DNA of 64,000 bases from assembly GCA_005239675.1 (NCBI GenBank), contig SBBO01000041.1:3187-67186 (forward strand), given 5' to 3'. Positions 8,261-59,587 of the stretch are shown piece by piece. Made by a program: the position numbers and the translations under genes. Under the pieces are notes generated by a model, which saw nothing but the letters and a program-made list of their open reading frames with translations, had not been told where the DNA came from and searched no databases. The stretch's first letter is position 1. Each line of letters starts with the position of its first letter. Source of the DNA: Planctomycetales bacterium. GTDB taxonomy: Bacteria > Omnitrophota > Gorgyraeia > Zapsychrales > Zapsychraceae.

Positions 8261-8326
8261 CAATCCTACATAGAAGGATAACCGTTTTCTGAAGCTTATG
8301 GAAATCAGTCGTTGGAAGGCAAGTAG

Positions 8327-10246
8327 ATGAATAATGAGTCTCCACGCATTCCCGCGCATTTCCATAAAATTCAATTTGTCTTAGCCGGGATAATTTTATT
8401 GTTCGTAACACCGCTTCATGCCAGTGTCAAGTTGAAAGTCTCCGCTTCTAATCCTTCACCGTTCCAGGAGCAGGTTGTCCCCGTTAAGTCTTATCTTCCC
8501 AAAGGTATCGGGCCGCAGGATATCATCAACGCCGGGGGCCTTACGATCGGTTACGACATAAGGAAGGGGCAGTATTATGTGTACAAAGAGGTTGTCTTGG
8601 CGCCTAAGGAAATGGCGGTCTATCAGGTGGAAATTAACGACATCTGGCTTATTAGCGAAGCAGATTTAGAGAAGCAGCGTGCCTATATTAATAAGCTGAC
8701 AGATCGTTTGAAGAATTCACAATACGCTAAAAGCGTCCAGAAGCTCATCGGAGAGATTGATGAGAGCATAACAATCATTATTAACCACCAGAATGAGAAT
8801 CTGATCGAGAAGGTATCTGCTGTTGATCACATCGCTGCCTATGAGTTGAACACGGAAACGCTCAAAAAGATTAAAGAAGACATTGACATCATAGAGAGCA
8901 TGGTTATGACACTTTCGAAGACAGGCGCGGTGGTCGGCGTTTCGCAGGACCAGGCGGCGCAAGCCTGTCTTGCGCAGGAGGCGATGCGATACGCGGACAT
9001 TAAAGGTATCGCGTTAGAGACACCACAGGACGTCAGGTTCACTATCGACGTCCAGAATTCATCGGATGTTGATACTCAGAATGTCCCTCTGCGGTATTAT
9101 CTGGCCCAAGAGGTTGGGGCCAATGATATCCTTGATTCTGCTGGCTTGAACGTAGGGTTTGATTTTGAAAAAGCGGTGCATTATCTTTTTCAAGACAGCA
9201 TCCTCTTGGGACCTGGCGAAAAAAAGATCTTCGATATTACTTTGCGCAACAAATGGGTCATCGATAAACTTTATTTGCTTACGCTTAAAGTAAATAGCGA
9301 TAATGTGGCCCTTGCCTTAGGCAGTCGCGCTGGTTTTGAAAAGTTTCGTCAGAGAAATGATGAAATCCAGTCTCAGCTAGATCAATTGCTGAAGGCAAAG
9401 AGCTTCACTGAACTGACTGAAGAGCATATCCGTACTTTTCGCAATAATCATCAGCAATTGAAAAATATTGAGCAAGAAATTGCTAAATTAGAGAATATGG
9501 TGATCACCTCCAATGGCGCAGGCGTTGTCACGGCCCAAGCGAGAGAGAGGTTGTGTGAAGAAAAGCGGGACCAGAAGATTATCGCGGCCGCAAAGGGTCC
9601 TGAGATCATTAAAGAATTTAAGATGGCCGCTGGAACAATCTTCAAGGGAAAATCCCTTAAGACGACCACCACCTGGGAGCTGATCATCGGTATTATCATT
9701 TTCTTAGGGTTCTTGAGTTCGGCGTTCTATTATATGCAAATCAGAGAACAGAAGGTCGTTATGTTGGATCCTTTGACCGGTGCTTTTTCGAGGGCGTATA
9801 TATTGGAACGATTCCGGGAAGAGCTCAGGATTTCCCAGAATACTGGCACGAAGTGTTCGCTTTTGGTGATGGATATTGATAAGTTCAAGTCTATTAACGA
9901 CACTTATGGGCATGCGGTGGGCGATACAATCCTTAAGGAATTTGTTATCACTATCCGTAAAGGCCTGCGCGCAACTGACCTTGTCGGCAGGTACGGCGGG
10001 GACGAATTTTTAATCATTTTGCCAACCAGCAATAAAGAGCGGGCTCATAAGATCGGTGAAGGTATCGCCAAGATTGTCCAAAAGAGTGTCATCCAAATTG
10101 AGAAACAAACATTTAAGATCACGACCAGTATTGGGACAGCGACCTATCCTGATGACAGCAAGGTCCCCGAGGACGTATTTTTGAAGGCGGATGGCGCCAT
10201 GTACCAGACTAAACGCCGGGGCGGCAATGGAGTGTCAACGGCATAA
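8327..10246 (+). CDS. Membrane diguanylate cyclase: two periplasmic modules, one TM segment, GGDEF domain
   Basis: N-terminal hydrophobic segment, TM WELIIGIIIFLGFLSSAFYYM, and a C-terminal GGDEF domain with an intact GGDEF (GRYGGDEFLIILP). An RxxD I-site (RATD) lies five residues upstream of it. Confidence 0.85.
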   Translation: MNNESPRIPAHFHKIQFVLAGIILLFVTPLHASVKLKVSASNPSPFQEQVVPVKSYLPKGIGPQDIINAGGLTIGYDIRKGQYYVYKEVVLAPKEMAVYQVEINDIWLISEADLEKQRAYINKLTDRLKNSQYAKSVQKLIGEIDESITIIINHQNENLIEKVSAVDHIAAYELNTETLKKIKEDIDIIESMVMTLSKTGAVVGVSQDQAAQACLAQEAMRYADIKGIALETPQDVRFTIDVQNSSDVDTQNVPLRYYLAQEVGANDILDSAGLNVGFDFEKAVHYLFQDSILLGPGEKKIFDITLRNKWVIDKLYLLTLKVNSDNVALALGSRAGFEKFRQRNDEIQSQLDQLLKAKSFTELTEEHIRTFRNNHQQLKNIEQEIAKLENMVITSNGAGVVTAQARERLCEEKRDQKIIAAAKGPEIIKEFKMAAGTIFKGKSLKTTTTWELIIGIIIFLGFLSSAFYYMQIREQKVVMLDPLTGAFSRAYILERFREELRISQNTGTKCSLLVMDIDKFKSINDTYGHAVGDTILKEFVITIRKGLRATDLVGRYGGDEFLIILPTSNKERAHKIGEGIAKIVQKSVIQIEKQTFKITTSIGTATYPDDSKVPEDVFLKADGAMYQTKRRGGNGVSTA

Positions 10247-13024: not shown

Positions 13025-15320
<2,296 letters not shown>

Positions 15321-15382
15321 ATGATCAAATCTTGATTCTTTAGGATGTCCCAATAAAAAAGCTTGAAAATGGAGTTAAGGGC

Positions 15383-17080
15383 ATGGCGTTACGCATAGGG
15401 GATATTTTGATCGAAAAAGGACTGATCACGCGGGATCAGTTGGAGAGGGCCGTACAGGAACATCAAAAGACCAAAGAGTTCCTTGGTCAGACCTTCATTC
15501 GCATGGGGTTTGTTACTGAAGAAAAACTTCTTAGAGTCCTGGCTGAGCAGCAGGGCATCGCTTTTCTTAGTTTAAGAGATGTCAAGTTTGACGATGCCGT
15601 CATTAAGAAAATACCGGTAAAATTTTCTTGGCATTATAAGATCATGCCGATTCGATGGCATGATAACGTCTTGACCGTTGCGACATCGAATCCTTTCGAC
15701 AAGTGGTTCATCGATGATTTAGAAACAAATTTGGGTTACCGGGTGGAGATGGTATTGGCATTATCTTCGGATATTATGAAGACCATCCAGAAATATTACG
15801 GTGTCGGTGCTGACACCATTGAACGCATTCTCGCCGAAACCCCCCACGAGGAGAAGGCCGCGGAGGTGGGGGTCAAGGAAAAAGTCGAGGATCTGGAAAA
15901 GGTCTCTGATGCCGCCTCGGTCGTTAAATTGGTTAACCAGATCCTTCAGCAGGCCATCCGTGACCGAGCGACCGACATCCACTTCGAGCATTTCCGCGGC
16001 AATCTGGCCCTTCGTTATCGTATTGATGGGATTTTGTATGATGCACAGGTCTCTGAGAATATGCGGTATCTTTATTCGGCCATTATCTCGCGCATTAAGG
16101 TCATGGCGAATATGGATATTGTGGAGCGCCGCGTTCCCCAGGACGGCCGGGCTAAAGTCAAAATAGGCGATAAAGAATATGAACTGCGCGTTTCGATTCT
16201 ACCCACTTTACACGGTGAGAATATCGCCATTCGCATCCTGCCGACCTTGATGCTTTTTAACATGAGTGATCTTGGGATGCACGATAAAGAATTGCAGGTC
16301 CTGCAGCGCGTCCTGCAAAAACCACACGGTATCATATTCGTGACCGGCCCCACCGGCAGCGGCAAGACGACAACCTTGTACACGTGCCTGAGCCAGGTGA
16401 ACACCCGCGAACGCAAAATCATTACAATCGAAGATCCCGTTGAGTATGAATTAAAGGGGGTCTCGCAGATTCAGGTCAATCCCAAAATAAGCCTTACCTT
16501 TGCCAGCGTCTTAAGAAGTATCTTGCGCCATGATCCTGACATCATTATGGTGGGGGAGGTTCGAGATTTTGAGACAGCGAGTATTACTATCCAGACTGCT
16601 CTCACTGGACATCTGGTATTCTCAACGATACACACGAATAACGCCGCCAGCGGGGCAACACGCCTGATCGATATGGGTATTGATCCGTTTCTTATTACCT
16701 CATCTGTGGAGATGTTTATTGCGCAGCGACTGGTGCGTCGGATTTGCCCCGATTGCAAGGAAGAATCCAGAATCGATGGCGACAAAATTGGCCTGAAGGA
16801 TATCCCCCAAGGGATGGATATCACTAGGCCAATCTTTCGCGGCAAGGGTTGCCCTACCTGCAACCATACCGGCTATAAAGGCAGGACCGGCATTTACGAA
16901 CTTTTGGTGATGAACGAAAAAATTCGGGACTTAATTCTTCATAAAGAGTCAGCGGACAAGGTTCAGCTTAAGGCCATTGAGACAGGGATGAATCCTATGG
17001 TGCTCGATGGATGGGAAAAAGTTTTTGCTGGTATGACAACACCTGAAGAGGTGCATAGGGTAACGCAGGTGGAGGAGTAA
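15383..17080 (+). CDS. gspE: GspE/PilB/MshE-family secretion ATPase with N-terminal MshEN-like domain and C-terminal tetracysteine motif
   Basis: GPTGSGKTTT Walker A; Asp and His boxes (ITIEDPVEY, GHLVFSTIHTNNA); CPDC...CPTCNHTGYKGRTGIYE. The N-terminus is RIGDILIEKGLITRDQLERAV / LGQTFIRMGFVTEEKLLRVLAEQ. Confidence 0.9.
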   Translation: MALRIGDILIEKGLITRDQLERAVQEHQKTKEFLGQTFIRMGFVTEEKLLRVLAEQQGIAFLSLRDVKFDDAVIKKIPVKFSWHYKIMPIRWHDNVLTVATSNPFDKWFIDDLETNLGYRVEMVLALSSDIMKTIQKYYGVGADTIERILAETPHEEKAAEVGVKEKVEDLEKVSDAASVVKLVNQILQQAIRDRATDIHFEHFRGNLALRYRIDGILYDAQVSENMRYLYSAIISRIKVMANMDIVERRVPQDGRAKVKIGDKEYELRVSILPTLHGENIAIRILPTLMLFNMSDLGMHDKELQVLQRVLQKPHGIIFVTGPTGSGKTTTLYTCLSQVNTRERKIITIEDPVEYELKGVSQIQVNPKISLTFASVLRSILRHDPDIIMVGEVRDFETASITIQTALTGHLVFSTIHTNNAASGATRLIDMGIDPFLITSSVEMFIAQRLVRRICPDCKEESRIDGDKIGLKDIPQGMDITRPIFRGKGCPTCNHTGYKGRTGIYELLVMNEKIRDLILHKESADKVQLKAIETGMNPMVLDGWEKVFAGMTTPEEVHRVTQVEE

Positions 17081-17092
17081 TTTAAAGTAGAT

Positions 17093-18370
17093 ATGCCCAC
17101 TTTTGTTTATAAGGCCAAGCGTGGTCCAGATCATCAGGAGACTGGGGAAGTCGTTGCCCTCCATCAGGACGATGCGGTCATCAAATTAGAAGCCTTAGGA
17201 TTGAGTCCTGTTAGTATTGTTGAAAAAGAGACCGTCGTTGGTGGATCCAGGACTGTCCAGAAAGTGGCCGGTGCCTCCGTGGGGGGGCTAGATTCGGTCC
17301 CTCCAGGATCTGTGTCTTATAGTGGGCTGATTAAAGTAAGGACACGCGACATTGATAGTTTTACTTGGCAATTGGCGACCCTAGTTAAGGCTAGTGTCCC
17401 CATGCTGCGCTCATTGGCCTTAATCTCCCAGCAAACCGAGAGCAGGGCCCTTAAGACGGTCGTTGATGATCTGCATCATCAGATCAAAAATGGTAAGACG
17501 CTTTCTGATGGGATGCGTCGATACCCCCAGCTATTTAATAATCTCTATTTGAGTATGATCAAATCCGGTGAGCATAGCGGCGCCCTACAGGAGGTCTTGT
17601 ATCGCATCGCCCAGTATCGCGAGAAGGAGCAGGCGGTCCTGCGTAAGATCCAGGCAGCCTTGGCCTATCCGGCCGTGATGATTGTGGTTGGCATCGCGAC
17701 GGTTTTTATTATGTTGACGGTCTTTATGCCCAAGTTTATTGGTATTTTTGCTACGATGAAGAAGGCCCTGCCCGTACCGACCCGTGTCTTGATTGGGATC
17801 AGCAATTTTTTAGTACATCATTGGTTCTGGTTTCTCATGGCCTTTCTCTTTGTCATGATCATTTTTGGTCGGGTCCGATCTTCGAGTCACAAGAAATTTA
17901 TCTTTGATTTGATTAAACTGCATATTCCATTCATCAACACGTTCGTGCGTAATGCCGAGATCGCCAAATTCGCTAGGACTTTAGGGTTGCTGTTGAAAAG
18001 CGGTCTGTCAGTCCACGATAGTCTTTTGTTGGCGACCGACACCCTTGACAACGACGCCCTACGTACTCAGCTAAGAGGCGCTGGTCAGGACATCGTTCAG
18101 CGGGGGGCAACACTCTCTTCAAGTCTTACTAAACTCAAGGCATTCCCTCCTTTTGCCGTCAACATGATTACGATTGGTGAAGAATCTGGAAGGCTCGATG
18201 AGTCGCTAGGCAGTATTGCCGGTGTCTACGAGAGAGAAGTAGAACAAGCGATTGGCGTTTTGACATCATTATTGGAGCCTATGCTTATTCTGGTGATTGG
18301 GGGGGTTATCGGATTTATCGTGTTTGCCTTGCTGTTACCGATATTTGACATAGGGACCATGGCGAGATAA
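17093..18370 (+). CDS. gspF: GspF/PilC-family inner-membrane platform protein
   Basis: Size is 425 aa, with a duplicated T2SSF-type architecture (two cytoplasmic helical domains, each followed by TM segments). It lies immediately after gspE. Confidence 0.85.
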   Translation: MPTFVYKAKRGPDHQETGEVVALHQDDAVIKLEALGLSPVSIVEKETVVGGSRTVQKVAGASVGGLDSVPPGSVSYSGLIKVRTRDIDSFTWQLATLVKASVPMLRSLALISQQTESRALKTVVDDLHHQIKNGKTLSDGMRRYPQLFNNLYLSMIKSGEHSGALQEVLYRIAQYREKEQAVLRKIQAALAYPAVMIVVGIATVFIMLTVFMPKFIGIFATMKKALPVPTRVLIGISNFLVHHWFWFLMAFLFVMIIFGRVRSSSHKKFIFDLIKLHIPFINTFVRNAEIAKFARTLGLLLKSGLSVHDSLLLATDTLDNDALRTQLRGAGQDIVQRGATLSSSLTKLKAFPPFAVNMITIGEESGRLDESLGSIAGVYEREVEQAIGVLTSLLEPMLILVIGGVIGFIVFALLLPIFDIGTMAR

Positions 18371-18408
18371 AAATTGATTATCTAAAAGGGTGATAAAGGA
18401 GATATACC

Positions 18409-18819
18409 ATGAAGAAAGGATTTACGCTCATTGAGCTCATGATCGTTGTTATTATCATTGCTGCGTTAGCGGCGATGGTCGTCCCGCGACTGGGGTCGCG
18501 TTCTGAACAGGCCAAGGTGGCAGTTGCAGAGGCAGACATCAATGCGAACATTAGTCTGGCCCTTAAGCTCTACAAGTTGGATAACGGCCGCTATCCAACG
18601 ACCTCTCAAGGGCTCAAGGCCCTTCTTGAAAGGCCCACCGCGAGCCCAATGCCAACGAACTGGAACGGCCCGTATCTTGAGAAAGAACCCTTGGATCCAT
18701 GGAACAATGCCTATCAATATAAGAACCCAGGCGCCCAGAATAAGGACAATTATGATCTGTATTCGATGGGAACCGATGGCACTGAAGGAACAGAAGATGA
18801 TATTAAGAACTGGCAATAG
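18409..18819 (+). CDS. gspG: Major pseudopilin, GspG type
   Basis: Prepilin signal MKKG|FTLIELMIVV with E+5, and the GspG hallmark DPWNNAYQYKNPG...YDLYSMGTDGTEGTEDDIKNW. AAGGAG lies upstream of the ATG. Confidence 0.9.
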   Translation: MKKGFTLIELMIVVIIIAALAAMVVPRLGSRSEQAKVAVAEADINANISLALKLYKLDNGRYPTTSQGLKALLERPTASPMPTNWNGPYLEKEPLDPWNNAYQYKNPGAQNKDNYDLYSMGTDGTEGTEDDIKNWQ

Positions 18820-18837
18820 CACAAGACATCACAGTAA

Positions 18838-18893
18838 GGTCTTCGGTCTTGGGTCTTGGGTCTACAGTCTAAGATCTTCGGTCTATGGTCTGA
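18838..18893 (+). repeat. Eight tandem heptanucleotide repeats (consensus GGTCTTN)
   Basis: GGTCTTC GGTCTTG GGTCTTG GGTCTAC AGTCTAA GATCTTC GGTCTAT GGTCTGA, with an exact 7-nt period starting at 18838. Confidence 0.9.
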
Positions 18894-19267
18894 ATAAAGG
18901 GGTCACCTTTTTTGAGATTCTTCTTACTGTCGTCGTTCTTTCTGTGGGCATGGTGGGCGTATTGCGGGTATATGCCGCATCTTTAAGTATCTTGGAAGTT
19001 GTGGGCGATACTATAAATAGCCTAGTATTGACCCAGGAGAAGATGGCAGATAGCGAACAGACGGCCCTAGAGGAGGGTGGGATCTCAATAGGAACTTCGA
19101 GCGGCCAGTTTAACAAAAGATTGGGGGATTATATCTGGGAGTCTAACGCTACGGCTTCAGCCATCGCAGGGCTTGATGCATTGACATTCACCGTGTATCG
19201 TGCGGGTAGTTCTAGAAGATTTCAGTTGGCGACTTATATCGAAGATAAGAATGATGAATTACCGTAA
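18890..19267 (+). CDS. Minor pseudopilin (GspI-like); start codon unresolved
   Basis: (L/M)NKG|VTFFEILLTVVVLSVGMVGVL is a class-III signal-like N-terminus with E+5. No in-frame ATG/GTG/TTG lies between the gspG stop and this motif. CTG 18890 sits where the Met of a 4-residue leader is expected. Confidence 0.5.
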   Translation: MNKGVTFFEILLTVVVLSVGMVGVLRVYAASLSILEVVGDTINSLVLTQEKMADSEQTALEEGGISIGTSSGQFNKRLGDYIWESNATASAIAGLDALTFTVYRAGSSRRFQLATYIEDKNDELP

Positions 19268-19898
19268 GGGTTTTACACTTATCGAACTTGCGATTGCCGC
19301 GTCCATTTTAAGTATGGTTGCGTTGGCTATTTTGTCGGTTTTTGGGGCAGGTCTGCGCACCTTTGACCGTGTGGCAGTGTTTGGTGGTTCCCAATCAGGA
19401 TTTTTATTATTTTTGCAAAATTTTGAAACGGATATACGCAATGCCTTCGAGCTCCCCGGAGTTCCCTTTACGGGTAACACTCAAAAGATGAGCTTTGCGG
19501 GGATTACCTCTGAGCTCAATGAAGATAATGAGGTTTCTGTCGCATTAGTCAAAAAGTTATATTATTTTGACAATGCCCGCAATACTTTGTTTAATAAAGA
19601 AGAAGGGTACCCTCAGGCGGTATTTCCTTTTGATGTCCCGTCAGAACAGGTTGGGTCGCTCATGGACGTTCGGTTCCAGTATTATGCGTATACGAAGACC
19701 ATAGAAGAGGGAAAAGAAAATATTCAATATGGATGGCAGGACGCGTGGAGCGAAGAAGGCAGTTTGCCTAGAGGGGTCAAGATAGTCTTGACATTTAATA
19801 ATGGCGATCAGGATGTCATCTGGGAGCGGACGGTATTTATCCCGACTGGTGGGGATGTTCCTTTCTTACCAGCAACAGAGGAAGAACAGGAAGGTTAG
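19251..19898 (+). CDS. Minor pseudopilin (GspJ/H-like)
   Basis: MMNYRKG|FTLIELAIAASILSMVALAIL prepilin motif; 215 aa. It overlaps the previous gene by 17 nt. Confidence 0.75.
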   Translation: MMNYRKGFTLIELAIAASILSMVALAILSVFGAGLRTFDRVAVFGGSQSGFLLFLQNFETDIRNAFELPGVPFTGNTQKMSFAGITSELNEDNEVSVALVKKLYYFDNARNTLFNKEEGYPQAVFPFDVPSEQVGSLMDVRFQYYAYTKTIEEGKENIQYGWQDAWSEEGSLPRGVKIVLTFNNGDQDVIWERTVFIPTGGDVPFLPATEEEQEG

Positions 19899-19899
19899 G

Positions 19900-20919
19900 G
19901 TGAGGTCTAGATGTCGCCGGGCGAGTGTTTTGATTGTGGCCCTTTGGTGCCTTTTCTTTTTAAGTGGACTGGCGGTTGCCATCTATGTGCGCATTGCGCC
20001 GCAGGTTAGGTTGGTAGGGCATTTGCGGGACAAGGTCAAAGGCTATTATGCGGCTAAGGCTGGGGTCAGGCAAGCTATGTTCATGATGAACGCAGATGTG
20101 ACGCAAGATTATGATGCCTTAAACGACATCTGGGTCGATAATGAAGAGACGCTCAAGGATATTGAGATAAGTAAAGAGGCCTCTGTTAGTGTGAAATATG
20201 AGTGGACAGATGAGCAGGGAGTACTGCAGACCCGTTATGGTCTTATCGATGAGGAAAGCAAAATTAATATCAACACGGCGTCTCTGGATACCTTTGAGCA
20301 CCTTCTAGAATCCATTGGTCAGGCGACCTCCTCACAGGTGACAGATATTGCCAATGCCATTTTAGATTGGGTGGACGAAGATAGTGACCTGCGCCCGAAC
20401 AGCGCCGAAGAAGGTTATTATGCCGGCCTCAGCCCTAGTTACCCGTGTGCTAATGCCAAGTTCGCCGTGCCTGAGGAATTGCTTTTGGTTAAAGGCATGA
20501 CGTTGGAAATTTTTAATAAGATAAGGCCTTTTATTACCGTTTACGGCTCAGGCAGGGTCAATATCAACACGGCCGGTGAGCATGTCTTGGAAGCGATAGG
20601 TCTTGAACGTGCGCTCATAGATAAAGTGTTCCGGTTTCGCCGGGGCAACGATGGTCAGGAAGGAACCGCTGATGACAATGTATTTCAGGCCATGACATCG
20701 GTCATCGCGTCATTGAACAGCGCCGTTGGATTATCTGAACCAGAGACGCAACAGTTAAACCTATTGATCGCAGCTGAAGTGCTCAGCGTGGGTTCCAATT
20801 ATTTCTACGGTGAGTCATGGGTGCAGTTGCTCTCCAGTGCAGGGGATTCCCACATGCCTCTTAAGGTTGTCTTTATCTTTGACCGAGGAAAGAATATCCG
20901 GTTCTGGAGGGAAGGGTAA
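19900..20919 (+). CDS. gspK: GspK-like minor pseudopilin
   Basis: GTG 19900 follows the preceding stop directly. The hydrophobic N-terminus is ASVLIVALWCLFFLSGLAVAIYV. Two helix-hairpin-helix-like motifs (KININTASLDTFEHLL, RVNINTAGEHVLEAIG) are typical of GspK. Confidence 0.7.
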   Translation: MRSRCRRASVLIVALWCLFFLSGLAVAIYVRIAPQVRLVGHLRDKVKGYYAAKAGVRQAMFMMNADVTQDYDALNDIWVDNEETLKDIEISKEASVSVKYEWTDEQGVLQTRYGLIDEESKININTASLDTFEHLLESIGQATSSQVTDIANAILDWVDEDSDLRPNSAEEGYYAGLSPSYPCANAKFAVPEELLLVKGMTLEIFNKIRPFITVYGSGRVNINTAGEHVLEAIGLERALIDKVFRFRRGNDGQEGTADDNVFQAMTSVIASLNSAVGLSEPETQQLNLLIAAEVLSVGSNYFYGESWVQLLSSAGDSHMPLKVVFIFDRGKNIRFWREG

Positions 20920-20990
20920 TAGTTTTATTCTCGTAGAAGAAATTTTAAAAAGTCTTTGCATGGACATAGAATTGAGATGATGATAAGGGC

Positions 20991-22469
20991 ATGACGAAAC
21001 TCATGATACCACAAGTTGCGCGCAAATCTGTCGTGGTCGTGGAAATCGGCAATGACTGGCTTAAGGTTGTGGGGGGAACCCGAGTCGGCCAGGAAGGAAT
21101 GATCACCAAGGTCAGTTTTCAGAGACTTGTTGACATTAAGGAGCCTGTTGCCGCGGCCCTGGTTAAGGTTTTTAAAGATCTCAAGCTCAATAAAGAGAAG
21201 GTCATCGCCTGCATGCCTCGACATATGGTGACCGTCAGATTCCTGGAATTCCCTGCGACGAACCCAAAGGACATCCAGGATATGGTCTCGTTGCAGATAG
21301 GTAAGCAAACCCCCTATTCTCGCGATGAAATCATTTTTACTTACAAGACGATTGCCACTACCAACACAGGGTACACCAAGGTTATGCTGGTCATTGCCCG
21401 GCGCAATTTGGTCAATGCACGCATTGCGGTCTTGCAAGAGGCCGGTATTGAGATTGAAAAGGTGGCATTAAGTTCGGAGGGGCTGGCCCATTGGTTTTGC
21501 CTGGCTCAGGATAGCGTCCAGGCGGATAACAAGGCAGTCATTTATGTAGACATTGATTCCGGTTATTCTGATTTTACAGTGATTCGCGGTGGAAAATTAG
21601 TTTATACAAGAAATTTCTTGATCGGGGCTAATCACTTGATGGGGCAAGAGATGAGCTGGCAAGATAAGTTCTGTGAGGAGACGATACATTCCATGGGGCT
21701 GTATCTTAACGAAGATCGAGACGTGAAGATCGCGCGGTTATTCTTGGGTGGGACCGCTGCGCACATTCCTTTATCAATTGTTCGGTTGGCCCAAAAGGTC
21801 GAGGTGCCGATTGCCGTGATCGAACCGCTGCATGCTATTCCCCTCCAGAAGGCCTCGCGATTGTTCGAAAAAAATGAGGGGCAACTCATCTCACCGTGCC
21901 CTTTAATAGGGATTGCGCTGGCAGGATCGGACCTTGAATTGGATTTGACCTCTAGCGAACTGCACATTAAGAAAAATATGGAGGAGAGACGTAAACAGAT
22001 CACGACAACGGGGGTCCTTATGCTTTCCATCCTCATGGCGTTGTCAACCCTATTTTTTATCAGCTATTTTTATAAAAACCATTATATGAGCGAATTGAAG
22101 AAAACCATCGCCACGATGGAAAAAGATGCCCTTGAGGTAGAAAGGATGCGCACGGCGATCAATCTGGTTAAGGGCCGGCTGGACGCGCGCAAGAGTTCGA
22201 TTAATATTCTGCAGGAGATCACTCGGTTGACACCGAAAGAAATTTATTTCACCGACATTAAGATTGAGGAAGAAAAACAGACGATCCTTCAGGGGAGGGC
22301 TGCTGCCATGTCGAATGTCTTTGAATTTGTCACGACCCTGGAGGGTTCCCCTTATTTTGAGAGCGTACAAACGACCTACACAACCACAAAAAAGGAAAAA
22401 GATACCGAGCATGCCCGATTCGAGATTATATGCATCCACGAGAAACACGATGATGACTTCGGGTCATAA
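20991..22469 (+). CDS. PilM-PilN fusion (GspL-like assembly protein)
   Basis: The N-terminal ~330 aa are actin-like and PilM-like (VVVEIGNDWLKVV, YVDIDSGYSDFTVIRGGKLVYTRNFLIGANHL). A TM segment (GVLMLSILMALSTLFFISYFY) follows, then a PilN-like periplasmic domain. Confidence 0.75.
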   Translation: MTKLMIPQVARKSVVVVEIGNDWLKVVGGTRVGQEGMITKVSFQRLVDIKEPVAAALVKVFKDLKLNKEKVIACMPRHMVTVRFLEFPATNPKDIQDMVSLQIGKQTPYSRDEIIFTYKTIATTNTGYTKVMLVIARRNLVNARIAVLQEAGIEIEKVALSSEGLAHWFCLAQDSVQADNKAVIYVDIDSGYSDFTVIRGGKLVYTRNFLIGANHLMGQEMSWQDKFCEETIHSMGLYLNEDRDVKIARLFLGGTAAHIPLSIVRLAQKVEVPIAVIEPLHAIPLQKASRLFEKNEGQLISPCPLIGIALAGSDLELDLTSSELHIKKNMEERRKQITTTGVLMLSILMALSTLFFISYFYKNHYMSELKKTIATMEKDALEVERMRTAINLVKGRLDARKSSINILQEITRLTPKEIYFTDIKIEEEKQTILQGRAAAMSNVFEFVTTLEGSPYFESVQTTYTTTKKEKDTEHARFEIICIHEKHDDDFGS

Positions 22470-22490
22470 TGTATCTTGTAAAAAAATGAT

Positions 22491-23033
22491 ATGTTTTGGG
22501 AAAAACTTTCTAAAAAAGAAACAATAGGATTGACTATTGCCTTTGTGATCCTGGCCGTTGCCTTCCTTGACCGGCTCATGATTGGTCCTATCCGGGCGCG
22601 ATTTAGGGCCATCAACCAGCAGATCAAGATTAGCGAAAAGCAGCTAGGTAGTGATATACGCAATCTCAGGCAAAAGAATATCATTAGTGAAGAGTATGAG
22701 AAATTCTTTCCGTTTATCCACCGCAGCGGTTCTGGTTCCGATGAAGAGGAGGTGGCCAAGATCTTGGGTGAAATTGAATCGCTGGCCAGGAAATCTTCAG
22801 TTTATTTAGTAGATATGAAGCCGCGCAGTAAGCCGCAGGCCATGGAGCTGCACAAGCAGTATACGGTGGAGATCGAGGTGGAAGGGCAAATGGAACCCCT
22901 GGTTAACTTTATTTATCAGCTAAACACCTCATCCCAGTTGCTGCGCATCGAGATGTTGCGCATGAATCCTACGAAGAATGACACCAAGACCCTAACTGCC
23001 TCCATGCTGATTACAAGAGTGCTATGGATTTAA
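22491..23033 (+). CDS. PilO/GspM-like assembly protein
   Basis: Size is 180 aa, with an N-terminal TM (IGLTIAFVILAVAFL), a coiled segment and a C-terminal ferredoxin-like pattern (YTVEIEVEGQMEPLVNFIYQLNTSSQLLRIEMLRM). Confidence 0.6.
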   Translation: MFWEKLSKKETIGLTIAFVILAVAFLDRLMIGPIRARFRAINQQIKISEKQLGSDIRNLRQKNIISEEYEKFFPFIHRSGSGSDEEEVAKILGEIESLARKSSVYLVDMKPRSKPQAMELHKQYTVEIEVEGQMEPLVNFIYQLNTSSQLLRIEMLRMNPTKNDTKTLTASMLITRVLWI

Positions 23034-23143
23034 CAAAAATTTAACAAAAATTTTCAATAAGTAATTGTGTGCCTATTCATAGTATGTTATAGTAAGAATT
23101 AATTATATCGTCAGCAATATAAGCTATTGAAATAATAGAAGCC

Positions 23144-24496
23144 ATGACCCCGCCAATTCTTCCTAAGGTCGATTTCTTAAATAAACTTAAGGGAAAAATA
23201 CCTTTCGATAAAATACAGTCAAAGATCATGACATTGGGTGCATTTAGGCAGAGCGTATTTATCTTGATCCCACTATTGGTTGTTAGTCTTGGACTTACGG
23301 GCCTGACCATTCTCGATAAACGGAAAATAGCGCGACAAAAGATTTCTGTTGAAGGCGACCTTAAGACCGCTCGCGCTCGGGAGAAAGAGAGTCTTGCCGA
23401 ACTCAATAGTTTAAAGGGTCAGCTTAATTTAGCCCAGCAAGAGAAGTTACAATTTGAGCAGACTATAGCTGAATTGCAGAAAAGTATTGAAGAAAGGCTT
23501 ACCGAGATCTCCGCCATAACTGTCCAAGGGGAGCGATCAAGGCAGGCGCTCGAAGAGATTGCTAAAGAGCGCGCTGAATTTATCAAGGAACGTGATGCAC
23601 TCGCCAAAGAACGCGACGAGCTGATCATAAAACTCAAGGAAAAACCTGAAGTGGTCTATGAGCAAAGGGTAGGGGTTGAGGGGACGGGTGGAGCGGGGGA
23701 CATTGCCCAGCCTGCCAGGATCGATCAGGCCTCCTTGGAGGCGGAGATTGAAAGACTTAAAGGGGATATCTTGCAGCGTTCCGTAACGATCGATCAATTT
23801 AAAAAGGAGAACAACGCGCTACGTACTGATCTAGAAGCGCTGCGTCGCGACAAAGAAAAGATAGAAGATGATATCGCTGCGAAAGAAGGGATGATTAATA
23901 ATCTTACCCTTGAACTCAGTAAGGTTAAAGACGACCATAGATTCGTGACTCAGAAAGCAGACAAGTTAACTCAGCAGAACATGGCCTTGCATGAACAGAT
24001 CAAGAGATCTTTTGATGCAAAGGCAGCCCTGGAGCGCTCGATTACCCGCACGATGCGTCAGAAAGACGCCATGGAGAATGAATTGAAGGACGCTCGGGCC
24101 ATCGTGCAGAAAAAAGTGGACGAAATATGGAAAATCAAACACAACCTGGACAATTCGTTTCAGCCCATTGAATCCGTCAGGCAGTCTGCCCCAGGCGAGG
24201 TAGAGCTCTCCCCTATTGTTGTCAATCACCATGGTCCGGTTTCAGCTTCCCGAATCGAGACTGACGCAACCGATTTTGGATTTAAGGCCAAGATCCTGAG
24301 TATCAATGAAGGTAATAATTTTGTCGTCCTAGACACGGGTGAGAAGCACGGCCTGCGCGTGGGAGATACGCTAGGTGTTTACCGTGATTCCGAATATATT
24401 GCGCGTCTTCAAATCATCCAGACTAGGCCTAATATCGCCGCGGCTGACCTGAAAGACCAGTGGTCGAAAGTTCAGGTGGGCGATATAGTCCGATGA
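23144..24496 (+). CDS. Membrane-anchored long coiled-coil protein with a small C-terminal beta-barrel-like domain
   Basis: TM VFILIPLLVVSLGLTGLTIL, then ~300 aa of heptad-rich charged sequence. The C-terminus is KAKILSINEGNNFVVLDTGEKHGLRVGDTLGVYRDSEYIARLQIIQTRPNIAAADL...VQVGDIV. Confidence 0.6.
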   Translation: MTPPILPKVDFLNKLKGKIPFDKIQSKIMTLGAFRQSVFILIPLLVVSLGLTGLTILDKRKIARQKISVEGDLKTARAREKESLAELNSLKGQLNLAQQEKLQFEQTIAELQKSIEERLTEISAITVQGERSRQALEEIAKERAEFIKERDALAKERDELIIKLKEKPEVVYEQRVGVEGTGGAGDIAQPARIDQASLEAEIERLKGDILQRSVTIDQFKKENNALRTDLEALRRDKEKIEDDIAAKEGMINNLTLELSKVKDDHRFVTQKADKLTQQNMALHEQIKRSFDAKAALERSITRTMRQKDAMENELKDARAIVQKKVDEIWKIKHNLDNSFQPIESVRQSAPGEVELSPIVVNHHGPVSASRIETDATDFGFKAKILSINEGNNFVVLDTGEKHGLRVGDTLGVYRDSEYIARLQIIQTRPNIAAADLKDQWSKVQVGDIVR

Positions 24497-56791: not shown

Positions 56792-59587
56792 ATGAAATCC
56801 GATGATATTATCATTCGTGGTGCCAAAGAACACAACCTGAAGAATGTCAATCTGACTATCCCGCGCAACGCCTTGGTGGTGGTGACCGGATTGAGCGGTT
56901 CGGGGAAATCATCGCTTGCCTTTGACACGATTTATGCCGAAGGTCAGCGTCGTTATGTGGAGAGCCTCTCGGCCTATGCCCGGCAATTTCTGGAACAGCT
57001 CCAGAAGCCTGATGTCGAGCATATCGCCGGATTATCGCCCACGATTTCTATTGAACAAAAAACAACCAGCCGCAACCCGCGTTCTACCGTCGCCACCCAA
57101 ACAGAGATTTACGATTATCTGCGCCTTTTGTTTGCTCGGGTGGGCACCCCTCATTGTTATCAATGCGGCAAGATCATTGAACGTCAGACGGTCCCTGAGA
57201 TTGTTGGGCAGATTATGGATTTAGGGGAAGGTGCCCAGACAACATTGTTGGCGCCCTTAGTGCGTGGTCGTAAGGGTGAATATCGTGACATCGGTAATCG
57301 GGTGGCCAAGGCGGGATTCGCGCGCCTGAGAATCGATGGGAAGATATACGGTGTGGAGGACCCAATTAAATTGGATAAATACCGAGCCCATCAGATCGAT
57401 GTTGTTATTGATCGTTTGAGCGTAAGACCGGCCGTTAAAAAACGGCTGACGGATTCAGTCGAGACGGCCCTTAAGATCGGTCAGGGGATCGTGATAGTCG
57501 ACTCGCCAAACCAACACGAACAACCACAGCGGATTTTTAGTGAGAACTACGCCTGCGCCGATTGTGGAATCAGCATCCCTGAGATTGAACCGCGCAATTT
57601 TTCGTTTAATTCTCCGTATGGGGCCTGTGAGGGCTGTAACGGATTGGGGACCCGTATCGAGATCGATCCTGGGCTTCTTGTCCCTGACCCAACGAGACCA
57701 TGGATTAATGCCATTGCGCCATCCCAGCGCGGACGCCGAGGGTATCTTATGTATTATCGAGCCGTCATGCGGGAATTGGCAGATCTTTACCGCGTTGAAT
57801 GCAGCCAGCCGTTTAAGGGGTTGACCAAGAAATTTAAAGATATTGTTCTAAATGGCAGCGATGATGATATCTGGGGCAGGCCTTATGAGGGGGTGATTCG
57901 TTATTTGGAACGGATGTTCCGGGAGACTGACAACGATTGGTTGAAAGATGAGATCGCCCGTTACATGTCTATCTTGCCTTGCCCGCTGTGTCAGGGGGCG
58001 CGACTAAAGAAGGAATCGCTGGCAGTCAAGATCGCTGGTTATCATATCGCTGACTTAACCGCTCTTTCCATTACACAGGTCAAGGTCTTTTTTACTGATC
58101 TTCAGCTTGTGCGTGAGAAAAAAGTCATCAGTGAATCAATTCTTAAAGAAATCCTGCGGCGGTTGAATTTTTGCATCAACGTTGGGCTAGGATACCTTAC
58201 TTTAGACCGCCGCAGTGCTACGTTGTCCGGCGGAGAGGCCGGGCGTATACGTCTGGCGACCCAAGTAGGGTCGGGCCTAGTTGGTGTAATCTATGTCTTA
58301 GATGAGCCCTCGATCGGATTGCATCAGAAGGATAACGAGCGTCTTTTATCGACTTTGCATACCTTACGGGACCTCGGCAATACGTTAATTGTCGTTGAGC
58401 ATGATGAGGCAACCATCCGTAGTGCCGATTACTTGATCGACCTGGGGCCTGGGGCGGGTGTTCACGGTGGTGAGATTGTCTATGCCGGGACAATTGCAGG
58501 GCTTTTGCAGTGCCCCCAATCTTTGACTGGACAGTATCTGAGCAGGTGCTTTCAAATTCCTATCCCTTCCCTGCGCCGTCCCTTGGATAAGGTACCATAC
58601 CTGAAGATTATCGGCGCTAAGGAGAATAATCTAAAAGATATCGATGTGGCCATTCCCTTGGGTCGATTTGTCTGCGTTACAGGCGTTTCCGGATCGGGAA
58701 AATCCACCCTGGTTGATGAGGTCTTATTTAAGGCGCTTGCCCAGAAAATTTATCATGCCAAAGACAAACCAGGCAAGCACCGCAAGATTGAAGGTATCGA
58801 GCGCATTGATAAAGTCATCGTGGTGGACCAGTCCCCTATCGGCAGGACCCCGCGCTCTAATCCGGCGACGTATACCGGCGTCTTTGGCTATATCCGCGAT
58901 ATCTTTAGTCGTCTTCCTGAGGCGAAGATACGCGGATACCGGCCGGGGCGATTTAGTTTTAACGTCAAGGGTGGTCGTTGTGAGGCCTGCCAGGGCGATG
59001 GGATTCTCAAGATTGAGATGCATTTTCTGCCGGACGTCTATGTGACCTGCGAGGTCTGCCAGGGTCAGCGGTTTAATGAACAGACACTGGCTATTCAATT
59101 TAGGGGCAAGAATATTGCTGATGTCCTCAACCAATCGGTTGAGCAGGCGTTGGAGCTCTTTGCAGATATCCCCAGGATTAAGAAGACATTGCAGACACTC
59201 TATGATGTGGGGCTTGGTTATATTTGCCTGGGTCAATCCGCCACGACCATTTCTGGTGGAGAGGCCCAGCGGGTCAAGTTGGCCAGCGAGTTGTGTAAGC
59301 TCTCGACGGGAAATACGTTCTATATTTTAGATGAGCCCACGACAGGACTGCATTTTGCAGACGTGGACAAACTCTTGCAGGTCTTGCAGCGCTTGGTGGC
59401 TAAGGGTAATACGGTCCTTGTCATTGAACATAATATGGATGTCGTTAAGAATGCCGATTATGTCATCGACTTGGGACCCGATGGGGGAGATTACGGTGGC
59501 CGGCTGGTCTTTGGCGGGACGCCTGAGGCCTTGGCTGAACATAAGACTTCCTATACAGGACAGTACCTCAAAGAATATCTCCGTTAG
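56792..59587 (+). CDS. uvrA: Excinuclease ABC subunit A
   Basis: [48 protein letters not shown], two ABC modules (second Walker [11 protein letters not shown]), and zinc modules. The start is set after the terminator that lies inside the ORF-track extension. Confidence 0.9.

Follow-up and report, generated by a model that had tools for sequence, protein, structure and literature searches.

What is a run of eight tandem heptanucleotides doing just downstream of the stop codon of gspG, the gene of the major pseudopilin, in a member of the Omnitrophota? The original prediction, made from a 64 kb stretch of DNA (hereafter the window, by which we mean the whole of the stretch analysed), placed this run at 18838-18893, between gspG and the first of the minor pseudopilin genes, and considered it either as a slipped-strand substrate able to alter frame and initiation or as a multimeric array of protein-binding sites. 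Read directly, the tract consists of the eight 7-nt units GGTCTTC, GGTCTTG, GGTCTTG, GGTCTAC, AGTCTAA, GATCTTC, GGTCTAT and GGTCTGA. TRF recovers it as 18838-18884 (period 7, 6.7 copies, 75% matches, zero indels), and over the 56 nt the self-match at period 7 is 35 of 49 positions, compared with at most 30 (mean 25.2) in 200 sequences of 64 kb simulated under a first-order Markov model. Furthermore, the tract is base-for-base identical in L001, an independent assembly of the same population (Logan SRR6943130). Given this degree of self-match and this identity, the repeat is therefore real and non-random; its exact 7-nt period, and its start 19 nt after the gspG stop, had both been described correctly. 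Head-to-tail 7-nt units beyond chance are what characterizes STRR-like heptameric simple sequence repeats (SSRs), and the position of the tract agrees with the rule that such repeats lie less than ~50 bp from a stop codon among co-oriented ORFs (Rehm 2015). Within the window it is the sole array of at least three units at periods 4-12; six of the seven matches to GGTCTNNGGTCT fall inside it, and no other GGTCT array was found there. An Rfam scan of 18300-19400 gave nothing above noise, and a promoter and terminator scan gave no site at the tract. A G-quadruplex, which needs at least four G3+ runs with short loops, was also considered; the tract has just two GGG runs, and this reading suits only the CAGGG-type families of relatives, in which (CAGGGGT)4, (AGGGTAC)4 and (CAGGGTT)4 provide the necessary runs.

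The placement of the tract between two genes did not survive an inspection of the gene models. On the forward strand gspG (18409..18819; 136 aa, leader MKKG|FTLIEL), taken from the ORF list and identified by TIGR01710 (2.4e-48) and PF08334 T2SSG (5.9e-36), ends in a TAG at 18817-18819. The first minor pseudopilin gene (18797..19267, same strand; 156 aa), recognized from its translation, an identical NCBI protein (P0001) and 120 homologues, begins upstream of that stop codon and overlaps gspG by 23 nt, and its own stop (19265-19267) in turn overlaps the next pseudopilin gene (ATG 19251). Its ATG is preceded at a distance of 7 nt by a Shine-Dalgarno-like GAAGGA (18784..18789, forward strand) that is read within the 3' end of gspG; the start of gspG itself has AAGGAG at a similar spacing. 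There is no in-frame ATG, GTG or TTG between the gspG stop and the glycine at -1 (18899-18901), and the pseudopilin frame is open upstream to ATG 18797. Since no canonical start lies downstream and the frame stays open to an ATG with a Shine-Dalgarno sequence, the tract is therefore not intergenic. The NCBI protein starts at this ATG, the Logan gene call starts further upstream still, and both span the tract. The start of the minor pseudopilin is ATG 18797, its leader has 35 residues (MILRTGNSTRHHSKVFGLGSWVYSLRSSVYGLNKG), of which the tract forms codons 14-33, and there is no intergenic regulatory tract. The original prediction had itself named translation as part of a longer protein as an outcome that would speak against it, and this is the outcome to which the ATG, the gene calls and the frame in relatives point. 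Apart from correcting the gene model of the window, this serves as a warning that prepilin leaders and gene starts are easily mis-called in these genomes.

The N-terminus so defined (...LNKG|VTFFEILLTVVVLSVGMVGVL) has the features of a type IV prepilin-like leader sequence, with Gly at -1, Glu at +5, ~20 hydrophobic residues and a basic residue before the glycine. The protein is called GspI-like from its position, between gspG and the GspJ-like and GspK genes, and from the names of its homologues, some of which are entered by JGI as 'type II secretion system protein I'; no Pfam or NCBIfam model matched it. The spacer could still be untranslated if the pseudopilin began at the non-canonical CTG 18890 (MNKG|VTFFE), which is in frame and would yield a classic 4-residue leader. 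We consider this very improbable, since no Shine-Dalgarno sequence precedes the CTG, while a strong one accompanies the ATG at 18797, and insert-bearing relatives lack both an equivalent codon and any start near the cleavage site, their frame being kept from the upstream ATG. ATG 18885, likewise considered as a start, lies outside the frame and would give MV-stop. The suggestion that a change in unit number might create an initiation context was not borne out, as no variant of +1 or -1 unit brings this ATG usefully into frame and no unit change rescues it.

The origin of the additional leader codons becomes apparent when the same junction is compared among relatives. Searches with single sequences and with profiles found 120 homologous pseudopilins, the relatives being Candidatus Omnitrophota, and in ~20 loci the DNA was read from the gspG stop to the mature N-terminus. 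Five loci (L006, L007, L013, L015 and L023) are insert-free and read ATG TTA CGA ATT GGY AAT AGC GGT GTA ACG; they encode M(M)LRIGNSG|VTLVE from a start codon that overlaps the 3' end of gspG and is the only one available. Other relatives have 57-81 extra nt at exactly the same site, directly 3' of the gspG stop, in the form of inverted heptamer arrays around an A-rich loop, the arrays beginning 0-4 nt after the upstream stop codon. The heptamers themselves vary: (CAGGGGT)4-CAG-A8-(CTGTACC)4 in L009, L014 and L003; the L009 type with one CAGGGGT unit instead of four in L010; (CAGCGTA)3...(CCKATCC)4 in L008; CAGGGGA TAGGGGC TAGGGGT CAGGGGT...(CTAAACC)2 CTGTACC CTGCACC in L016; and (AGACCAA)4-AGAAAAATAATGG-(AGTCTTC)5 in L019, L022 and L026. 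The original prediction had proposed a search for the tract in orthologous clusters; heptamer arrays do occur at the same site in some of these, several of them with unrelated units, and others have no insert.

Against this background the leader in the window can be divided into its parts, all on the forward strand. The ancestral codons 1-8, MILRTGNS (18797..18820), correspond in protein alignment, and in the DNA of the five insert-free loci, to MLRIGNSG|. They are followed by a 78-nt in-frame insert (18821..18898; codons 9-34, TRHHSKVFGLGSWVYSLRSSVYGLNK), delimited by alignment to the insert-free L006 and L007, which lengthens the prepilin leader from ~8 to 35 residues. The cassette closes with CTGAATAAAGGG (18890..18901), encoding L-N-K-G(-1) directly before the predicted prepilin cleavage site; this 3' end is conserved, the cassettes of relatives ending likewise in CTGAAAAAGGT, CTTAACAAAGGT and CTGAACGAGGT (common ending CTGAAAAAGG). 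The mature pseudopilin (VTFFEILLTVVVLSVG..., with its Glu at +5; 18902..19264, from translation and alignment) comes next. Within the insert, the eight direct GGTCTNN units of the tract (18838..18893) are homologous to the 3' arm (AGTCTTC/GGTCTAT) of the hairpin cassettes of relatives. Units GGTCTTN and GGTCTAT agree with the 3' arm of the AGAC/GTCT family in 6 of their 7 positions, an array in the gspG leader of L019 and L023 (GGTCTATGGTCTTAACAAAGGT) likewise matches them, and the 3' end of the tract (GGTCTATGGTCTGAATAAAGGGG) resembles the gspG leader of L019 (GGTCTATGGTCTTAACAAAGGTT); moreover, AACTGG and the mature start are exactly 100 nt apart in the window, L002, L019, L022 and L026. The stretch that precedes the tract (ACAAGACATCACAGTAA; 18821..18837) may be a decayed remnant of the 5' arm, having partial similarity to the AGACCAA and CAGACAT units of relatives. 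The 5' end of the insert (ACAAGACATCACAG) resembles a decayed AGACNAA / CAGACAT arm, and so does that of the L005 insert (ACAGACATCAG), with which it was compared, together with the AGACCAA arms of L019, L022 and L026. Because three heptamers make seven codons, the peptide encoded by the tract has a 7-residue rhythm.

In the relatives the two arms can pair with each other. Scored against dinucleotide shuffles, their cassettes fold at -50.4, -49.8, -39.2, -30.2, -27.5 and -28.7 kcal/mol (z -3.6 to -6.6), and a palindromic hairpin is present in L003, L009, L016, L019, L022, L024 and L026. The segment in the window reaches only -19.2 kcal/mol (z +0.5), with neither a significant structure nor a palindrome, nor do the segments of L002 and L008 fold significantly (z -0.3 and +0.3). 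The tempo of change is given by L002, which comes from a different sample and whose protein is 83% identical to that of the window. Nucleotide identity between the two is 95.1% in gspG and 91.9% in the mature pseudopilin, but 76.8% in the tract; the 26 insert codons differ by 10 nonsynonymous and 4 synonymous codon changes and zero indels, and GGTCT is retained in 3 of the 8 units. The tract diverges faster than the synonymous sites in its flanks, which may reflect ongoing slippage or conversion instead of passive decay. In this comparison peptide, motif and structure are all unconserved, only the open frame and the length being kept, and this argues against both a binding array and an RNA element in this lineage. 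Nor does the comparison point to any rapid switching of length. We read the sequences as indicating that the 5' arm and the loop of the window cassette were lost or overwritten, via unit turnover or a length-preserving inversion; an inversion of the 5' arm that produced the eight direct units would account for the length of 78 nt shared with L019, L022 and L026, but the T-rich inverted loop to be expected from it is not visible.

The same divergence bears on the proposal that the eight phased GGTCT motifs are sites to which an RNA- or DNA-binding protein binds cooperatively. In favor of this are the exact 7-nt phasing and the proposal, made for TAACTGA heptamer arrays near start codons of the Beggiatoaceae, that they serve as sites for a regulator (PMC4679880). 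Nonetheless, a motif that has survived in just three units of its 83%-identical counterpart, in a tract so much less conserved than its 92-95% identical flanks, is replaced in other lineages by unrelated heptamers at the same site, and the window has no further array of it; we regard a binding array as exceedingly improbable.

What has been kept is the reading frame. With L005 set aside, 11 of 11 distinct DNA-checked inserts at the gspI site (window, L002, L003, L008, L009, L010, L016, L019, L022, L024 and L026) are open and in frame from the ancestral ATG, and the sole exception, L005, has a second element nested in the first. Leaders of 13-51 residues that are continuous with the ancestral N-terminus occur in 51 of the 120 homologues (mode 32-36 aa) and leaders of 12 residues or fewer in 29, and at most ~8 of the 120 are possibly frame-broken. 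Three short gene calls (P0040, P0031 and P0038) that could have been frame-broken arrays proved, at the level of the DNA, to be in frame or insert-free, and reflect the choices of the gene callers. Given at least eight unrelated insert sequences, the probability of such in-frame status by chance is ~ (1/3)^8. That the frame has been retained in all of these argues that it is under selection and hence that ribosomes read through the tract, which, judged from the comparison of sequences, appears to be translated.

A 7-nt unit inside an ORF, near its 5' end, is also what led to the suspicion of a contingency locus, in which single-heptamer slippage would switch the first minor pseudopilin on or off and, via translational coupling, the downstream pseudopilins with it. 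The tract is a genuine tandem array and, as such, a substrate of the slipped-strand type, and the anticipated effect of unit gain or loss on the frame was confirmed by simulation: adding or removing 1 or 2 units of the tract leads to stops after 22-35 codons and so truncates the pseudopilin, whereas +/-3 units keep the protein. Unit number does differ among relatives, and in L005 and L007 the contig starts partway through a heptamer array, possibly a sign of heterogeneity. However, phase variation is associated with long runs of identical units, and those of the window are imperfect, with their 75% match and a longest perfect run of 2.7 units. All DNA-checked relatives except L005 are in frame, the three apparent frame breaks being the gene-caller choices just mentioned. 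The predicted variation in repeat number is found as one versus four CAGGGGT units in L010 and L009; at the level of assemblies there is none among the window, L001 and L002, the last having the same length despite 23% tract divergence. The L010/L009 difference, the sole one within a shared family, amounts to exactly 3 units (21 nt), fewer than which would shift the frame, and this argues for selection against frame switching. Phase variation at this locus, as the original prediction envisaged it, is quite unlikely.

Elements of this sort are by no means confined to the gspG-gspI junction. In six relatives (L019, L023, L024, L026, L008 and L022) gspG is itself flanked by a 5' array, directly after the gspF stop, and a 3' array, just before ...NKG|FTLIEL; the loop between them holds the Shine-Dalgarno sequence, the ATG and ~22 leader codons, and the long-range stems have -56 to -65 kcal/mol (z ~ -5). 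For the third pseudopilin, a hairpin follows the stop of the gspI-like gene and lies, with the frame intact, in the leader that comes next (L009, L010, L016, L019 and L024). The comparison, which included a sliding RNAfold scan, also took in two 20-kb loci (L024 and L025) with the atp-gspEFG-IJK-pilMNO synteny of the window. These loci have heptamer palindromes in the atpH-atpA, atpA-atpG and atpG-atpD spacers, AT-rich palindromes in the gspE-gspF and gspF-gspG spacers, a direct (GGAAGAG)8 array in the gspF linker and, within atpA, a hairpin cassette that is carried in frame (...IDGKGP-VQGIGYRGQGTEKELSPIPHPLSPEK-YPVFRKAPG). The atpA of the window (11822) has no insert at the site of this cassette. 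The hypothesis that the arrays are specific to pseudopilins is refuted by the elements in the atp spacers, atpA and gspF. Cassettes within a genome have a common core, AGAC/GTCT in L019 and CAGGG/CCCTG in L009, L010 and L016; L025 has AGTAACC/GGTTACT palindromes at two atp spacers, L024 has GGGTACA/CTATCCC cassettes in both atpA and the third pseudopilin, and L025 has, at 1000-1215, a further occurrence of the family that is nested in L005. These elements are thus a genome-wide and not a pilin-specific feature of some Omnitrophota, and pseudopilin leaders are among the few coding places that tolerate them. Many dispersed copies per genome, of the kind present in L024 and L025, are not a feature of the window, in which no second locus of the tract's family was seen. 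The genome from which the window comes has very few such elements, and the tract is the only copy in the 64 kb.

The L005 locus gives some indication of how the inserts move. Its nested second palindrome is AT-rich, and its mature pseudopilin is identical to that of L006, in which the insert is absent; the two differ by a cluster of 8 synonymous changes just downstream of the insert. Identical mature proteins next to such a synonymous cluster suggest a spread by recombination. Inspected for the terminal inverted repeats and target-site duplication of a MITE, the elements show short CAGAC...GTCTG-like ends and AATA...AATA flanks, and no clear duplication.

Hairpins placed between the cistrons of an operon are not without precedent, since those of the REP type stabilize upstream mRNA, for example in malEFG. 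The junction could be occupied by a functional intercistronic RNA element that acts after the gspG stop, and the copy of the window would then be weakened or altered but still active via its sequence. In the relatives several observations favor this: strong hairpins stand 0-4 nt past the upstream stop both at gspG-gspI and between gspI and the third gene, and they bracket the gspG ribosome-binding site; the arms remain complementary across different heptamer families; and similar palindromes separate the atp cistrons of L025. Against it, there is no significant fold in the window, L002 or L008, presence or absence differs between the close relatives L005 and L006, many homologues are in-frame deletion derivatives, the hairpins are not followed by a U-run, and the sequence of the tract is not conserved. 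We hold such an element to be doubtful here, and no less doubtful the action proposed for it, that of shielding the abundant gspG mRNA from 3' exonucleases or of slowing or gating ribosomes and so setting the ratio of major to minor pseudopilin. In our judgement an RNA valve is attractive for the relatives that bear hairpins and unsupported for the unfolded, fast-evolving copy of the window.

The explanation that we favor, and think probable, is that the tract is a translated and largely neutral relic of a heptamer-array palindrome, slippage-derived, tolerated since the leader is removed and constrained in its frame only. The tract would be what erosion has left of the 3' arm of a small palindrome made of tandem 7-nt units; the full element, ~78 nt long, has two arrays around an A-rich loop, the 3' one inverted relative to the 5' one, and directly follows the gspG stop. 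Because the start codon of the next gene precedes the gspG stop, an element inserted there would be carried in frame in the leader codons, and translation from ATG 18797 would add 26 residues to the leader. Prepilin peptidase presumably cuts after Gly35 and removes the extra residues, so that the mature pseudopilin would be unchanged. Replication slippage would give rise to such arrays and homogenize them; in the genome of the window the hairpin has been lost and the units seem to be decaying by point mutation, the one visible remaining constraint being the open reading frame. On this relic explanation the tract probably has little or no regulatory role here. Some observations sit less comfortably with it. 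The cleavage of a 35-residue leader is a prediction, and a simple pattern search of the window gave no prepilin peptidase motif; in several genomes hairpin cassettes recur at the 5' ends of all three pseudopilins; and diverged lineages have kept the total length of the insert at 78 nt. This recurrence and this constant length could indicate function instead of tolerance. Taken to its limit, such a view would see in the Omnitrophota an undescribed class of heptamer palindromes after stop codons, threaded in frame, where genes overlap, through all pseudopilin leaders and even AtpA and maintained as post-transcriptional stoichiometry valves or frame-sensitive switches, with the hairpin of the window swapped for direct repeats; we think it unlikely.

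How does such a relic relate to repeats that are already known? Heptameric SSRs are over-represented in bacteria, where their function is unexplained (PMC4692102). The G-rich heptamers of Xanthomonas and Nostoc (GGGNATC / GGGGA(C/T)T) prefer 4 units, lie less than 50 bp from stop codons among co-oriented genes, can form inverted pairs and differ from one close relative to the next (Rehm et al. 2015, PMC4692102), and TAACTGA arrays are found near start codons, occasionally at the ORF periphery, in Beggiatoaceae, cyanobacteria and Bacteroidetes (MacGregor 2015, PMC4679880). The Omnitrophota arrays share with these, and with the cyanobacterial STRR sequences, tandem 7-nt units near ORF ends, on the sense strand of co-oriented genes, typically ~4 units per array, inverted pairs that form stem-loops, and a length and sequence that vary between close relatives. 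They differ in lying within coding sequence (prepilin leaders and atpA), where they are kept in frame, in their host phylum, and in the several unrelated heptamers that occupy one site across lineages; the copy of the window differs further in being single, direct and decayed. Heptamer-repeat palindromes, whose bacterial role is unexplained, are thus common in an uncultured phylum.

In being carried inside genes the elements resemble the Rickettsia palindromic elements (RPEs), the classic in-frame palindromes of ORFs (reviewed in PMC10969869), and other intragenic MITE-like palindromes: all are short, lie in frame in genes that include housekeeping ones, and are translated at tolerated positions. 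Like an RPE, the insert of the window lies in frame in an ORF and is absent from its orthologues in the five insert-free loci. RPEs, in contrast, are ~100-150 bp long with family-conserved peptides, whereas the elements described here have ~78 nt, 7-nt units and no conserved peptide, and the dispersal of one family within a genome is seen only in relatives (L024 and L025) and not in the window. Heptamer palindromes too can persist in coding sequence if the frame is kept. The heptanucleotide contingency loci hmw1A/hmw2A of H. influenzae (PMC8262952) are similar in their 7-nt unit, in belonging to a surface-structure gene and in that a change in unit number would alter expression, but here no length polymorphism was observed in the window's tract, the units are few and imperfect, and the differences among relatives preserve the frame. 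With REP/BIME-type hairpins the relatives have in common a stable hairpin directly after the stop of a highly expressed operon cistron; the difference is that here the element is embedded in the coding sequence of the next gene and that the copy of the window does not fold.

We found no report on pseudopilin leaders or repeats in the Omnitrophota in the literature searched. The union of heptamer-array palindromes with in-frame carriage, here in a prepilin leader, is a combination of known properties; the copy in the window is in itself an ordinary and decayed one, and what makes it interesting is the family to which it led. The many independent in-frame copies, with and without a hairpin, offer a natural test bed in which selfish passengers can be weighed against expression regulators. 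The leaders of the homologues also include a family of the form GDGTDDTDSSADSTDF...ISVISDKG.

Heptamer cassettes like those in the leader codons of the first minor pseudopilin gene of Omnitrophota relatives are present at several other positions in the relatives' DNA loci (here designated by L numbers). Inverted heptamer arrays bracket the translation start of gspG in L019 (930-1125), L023 (900-1100), L024 (9420-9640), L026 (1815-1990), L008 (2405-2640) and L022 (885-1060). Their 5' arm lies directly 3' of the gspF stop and their 3' arm within the leader, just upstream of NKG/FTLIEL (the slash marks the predicted prepilin cleavage site); as a result, the GspG leaders of these relatives are 30-40 residues long, and the two arms can pair over a long range into stems with energies between -56 and -65 kcal/mol. 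In the window, the GspG leader has 4 residues and the upstream spacer is a plain 38 nt. In relatives, a heptamer hairpin likewise sits in frame in the gene of the next minor pseudopilin (GspJ-like), directly 3' of the preceding stop (L009 3472-3565; L010 3445-3525; L016 925-1005; L019 1955-2040; L024 10465-10540), for example (AGGGTAC)4-A8TCAAAT-(CTGAACC)5, at -41 kcal/mol and with a z of -6.3. The window's homologue (start 19251, MMNYRKG/FTLIEL) is without such a heptamer hairpin.

The gspE-F-G-I-J-K-pilMN-pilO cluster, which together with atpD (13917-15320) occupies window positions 13917-24496 and includes a PilM-PilN fusion of 492 aa (20991-22469), adjoins the F-type ATP synthase genes on their downstream side, and this order of atp followed by gsp/pil genes is kept in two further Omnitrophota contigs, L024 and L025. 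In both of these, atpA, the gene of the ATP synthase alpha subunit, has in-frame repeat inserts in the same loop, after IDGKG: a heptamer hairpin cassette in L024 (2716-2795) and an array of the 8-mer CCGGATAC in L025 (2343-2420). The window's atpA (11822) has no insert at this loop. A hypervariable linker joins the N-terminal domain of GspF to its first T2SSF domain; in L024 a direct (GGAAGAG)8 array (8288-8346) encodes it, as EEGRGKREEGRGKREEGRK, and in the window (17230-17350) it is free of repeats and unalignable with the relatives.

The L005 cassette holds a nested second palindromic element (590-745; -65 kcal/mol), AT-rich and built of AATGRCAAAT / ATTTGYCATT units, which breaks the ancestral reading frame; a spacer of the atp operon in a different genome (L025 1000-1215) also has repeats of this family. 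The strains L005 and L006 do not differ in the mature pseudopilin or in the DNA upstream, but only one of them has the insert, and 8 synonymous changes are clustered in 40 nt just 3' of it (columns 295-340 of their alignment). To judge from this pattern, the clustered differences look like a recombination tract that brought the insert. The Logan contigs of L005 (1-30, ACATCAG x4) and L007 (1-30, TCAATGG x4) start inside heptamer arrays; such arrays evidently break assemblies, either via copies elsewhere or via length heterogeneity. Gene callers often place the relatives' pseudopilin start within or past the cassette, which truncates the leader; for the window's minor pseudopilin, the public calls are ATG 18776 (Logan, 163 aa) versus ATG 18797 (NCBI, 156 aa).

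One family of leaders, GDGTDDTDSSADSTDF...NQCNPFQISVISDKG, read as protein (homologues P0016, P0019, P0022, P0034, P0036, P0048, P0057, P0067 and P0068), contains the peptide repeats TD... and ISVIS. Arrays of ACTGATA/TATCAGT would be predicted to encode such peptides; this is the TAACTGA heptamer, which is known from Beggiatoaceae and cyanobacteria (PMC4679880). The arrays (CAGGGGT)4, (AGGGTAC)4 and (CAGGGTT)4-5 (L009 3022-3055 and 3477-3506; L010 3448-3480; L003 110-143) match, with exactly four G-runs, the canonical G-quadruplex motif, which echoes the four-unit preference of the G-rich heptamers of Xanthomonas and Nostoc (PMC4692102); the remaining heptamer families at these sites are not G-rich. 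Finally, a small CCTGGGG x2.1 tandem repeat in the window (58441-58455), whose sequence is akin to the CAGGG/CCCTG cores found in relatives' cassettes, is possibly another relic.
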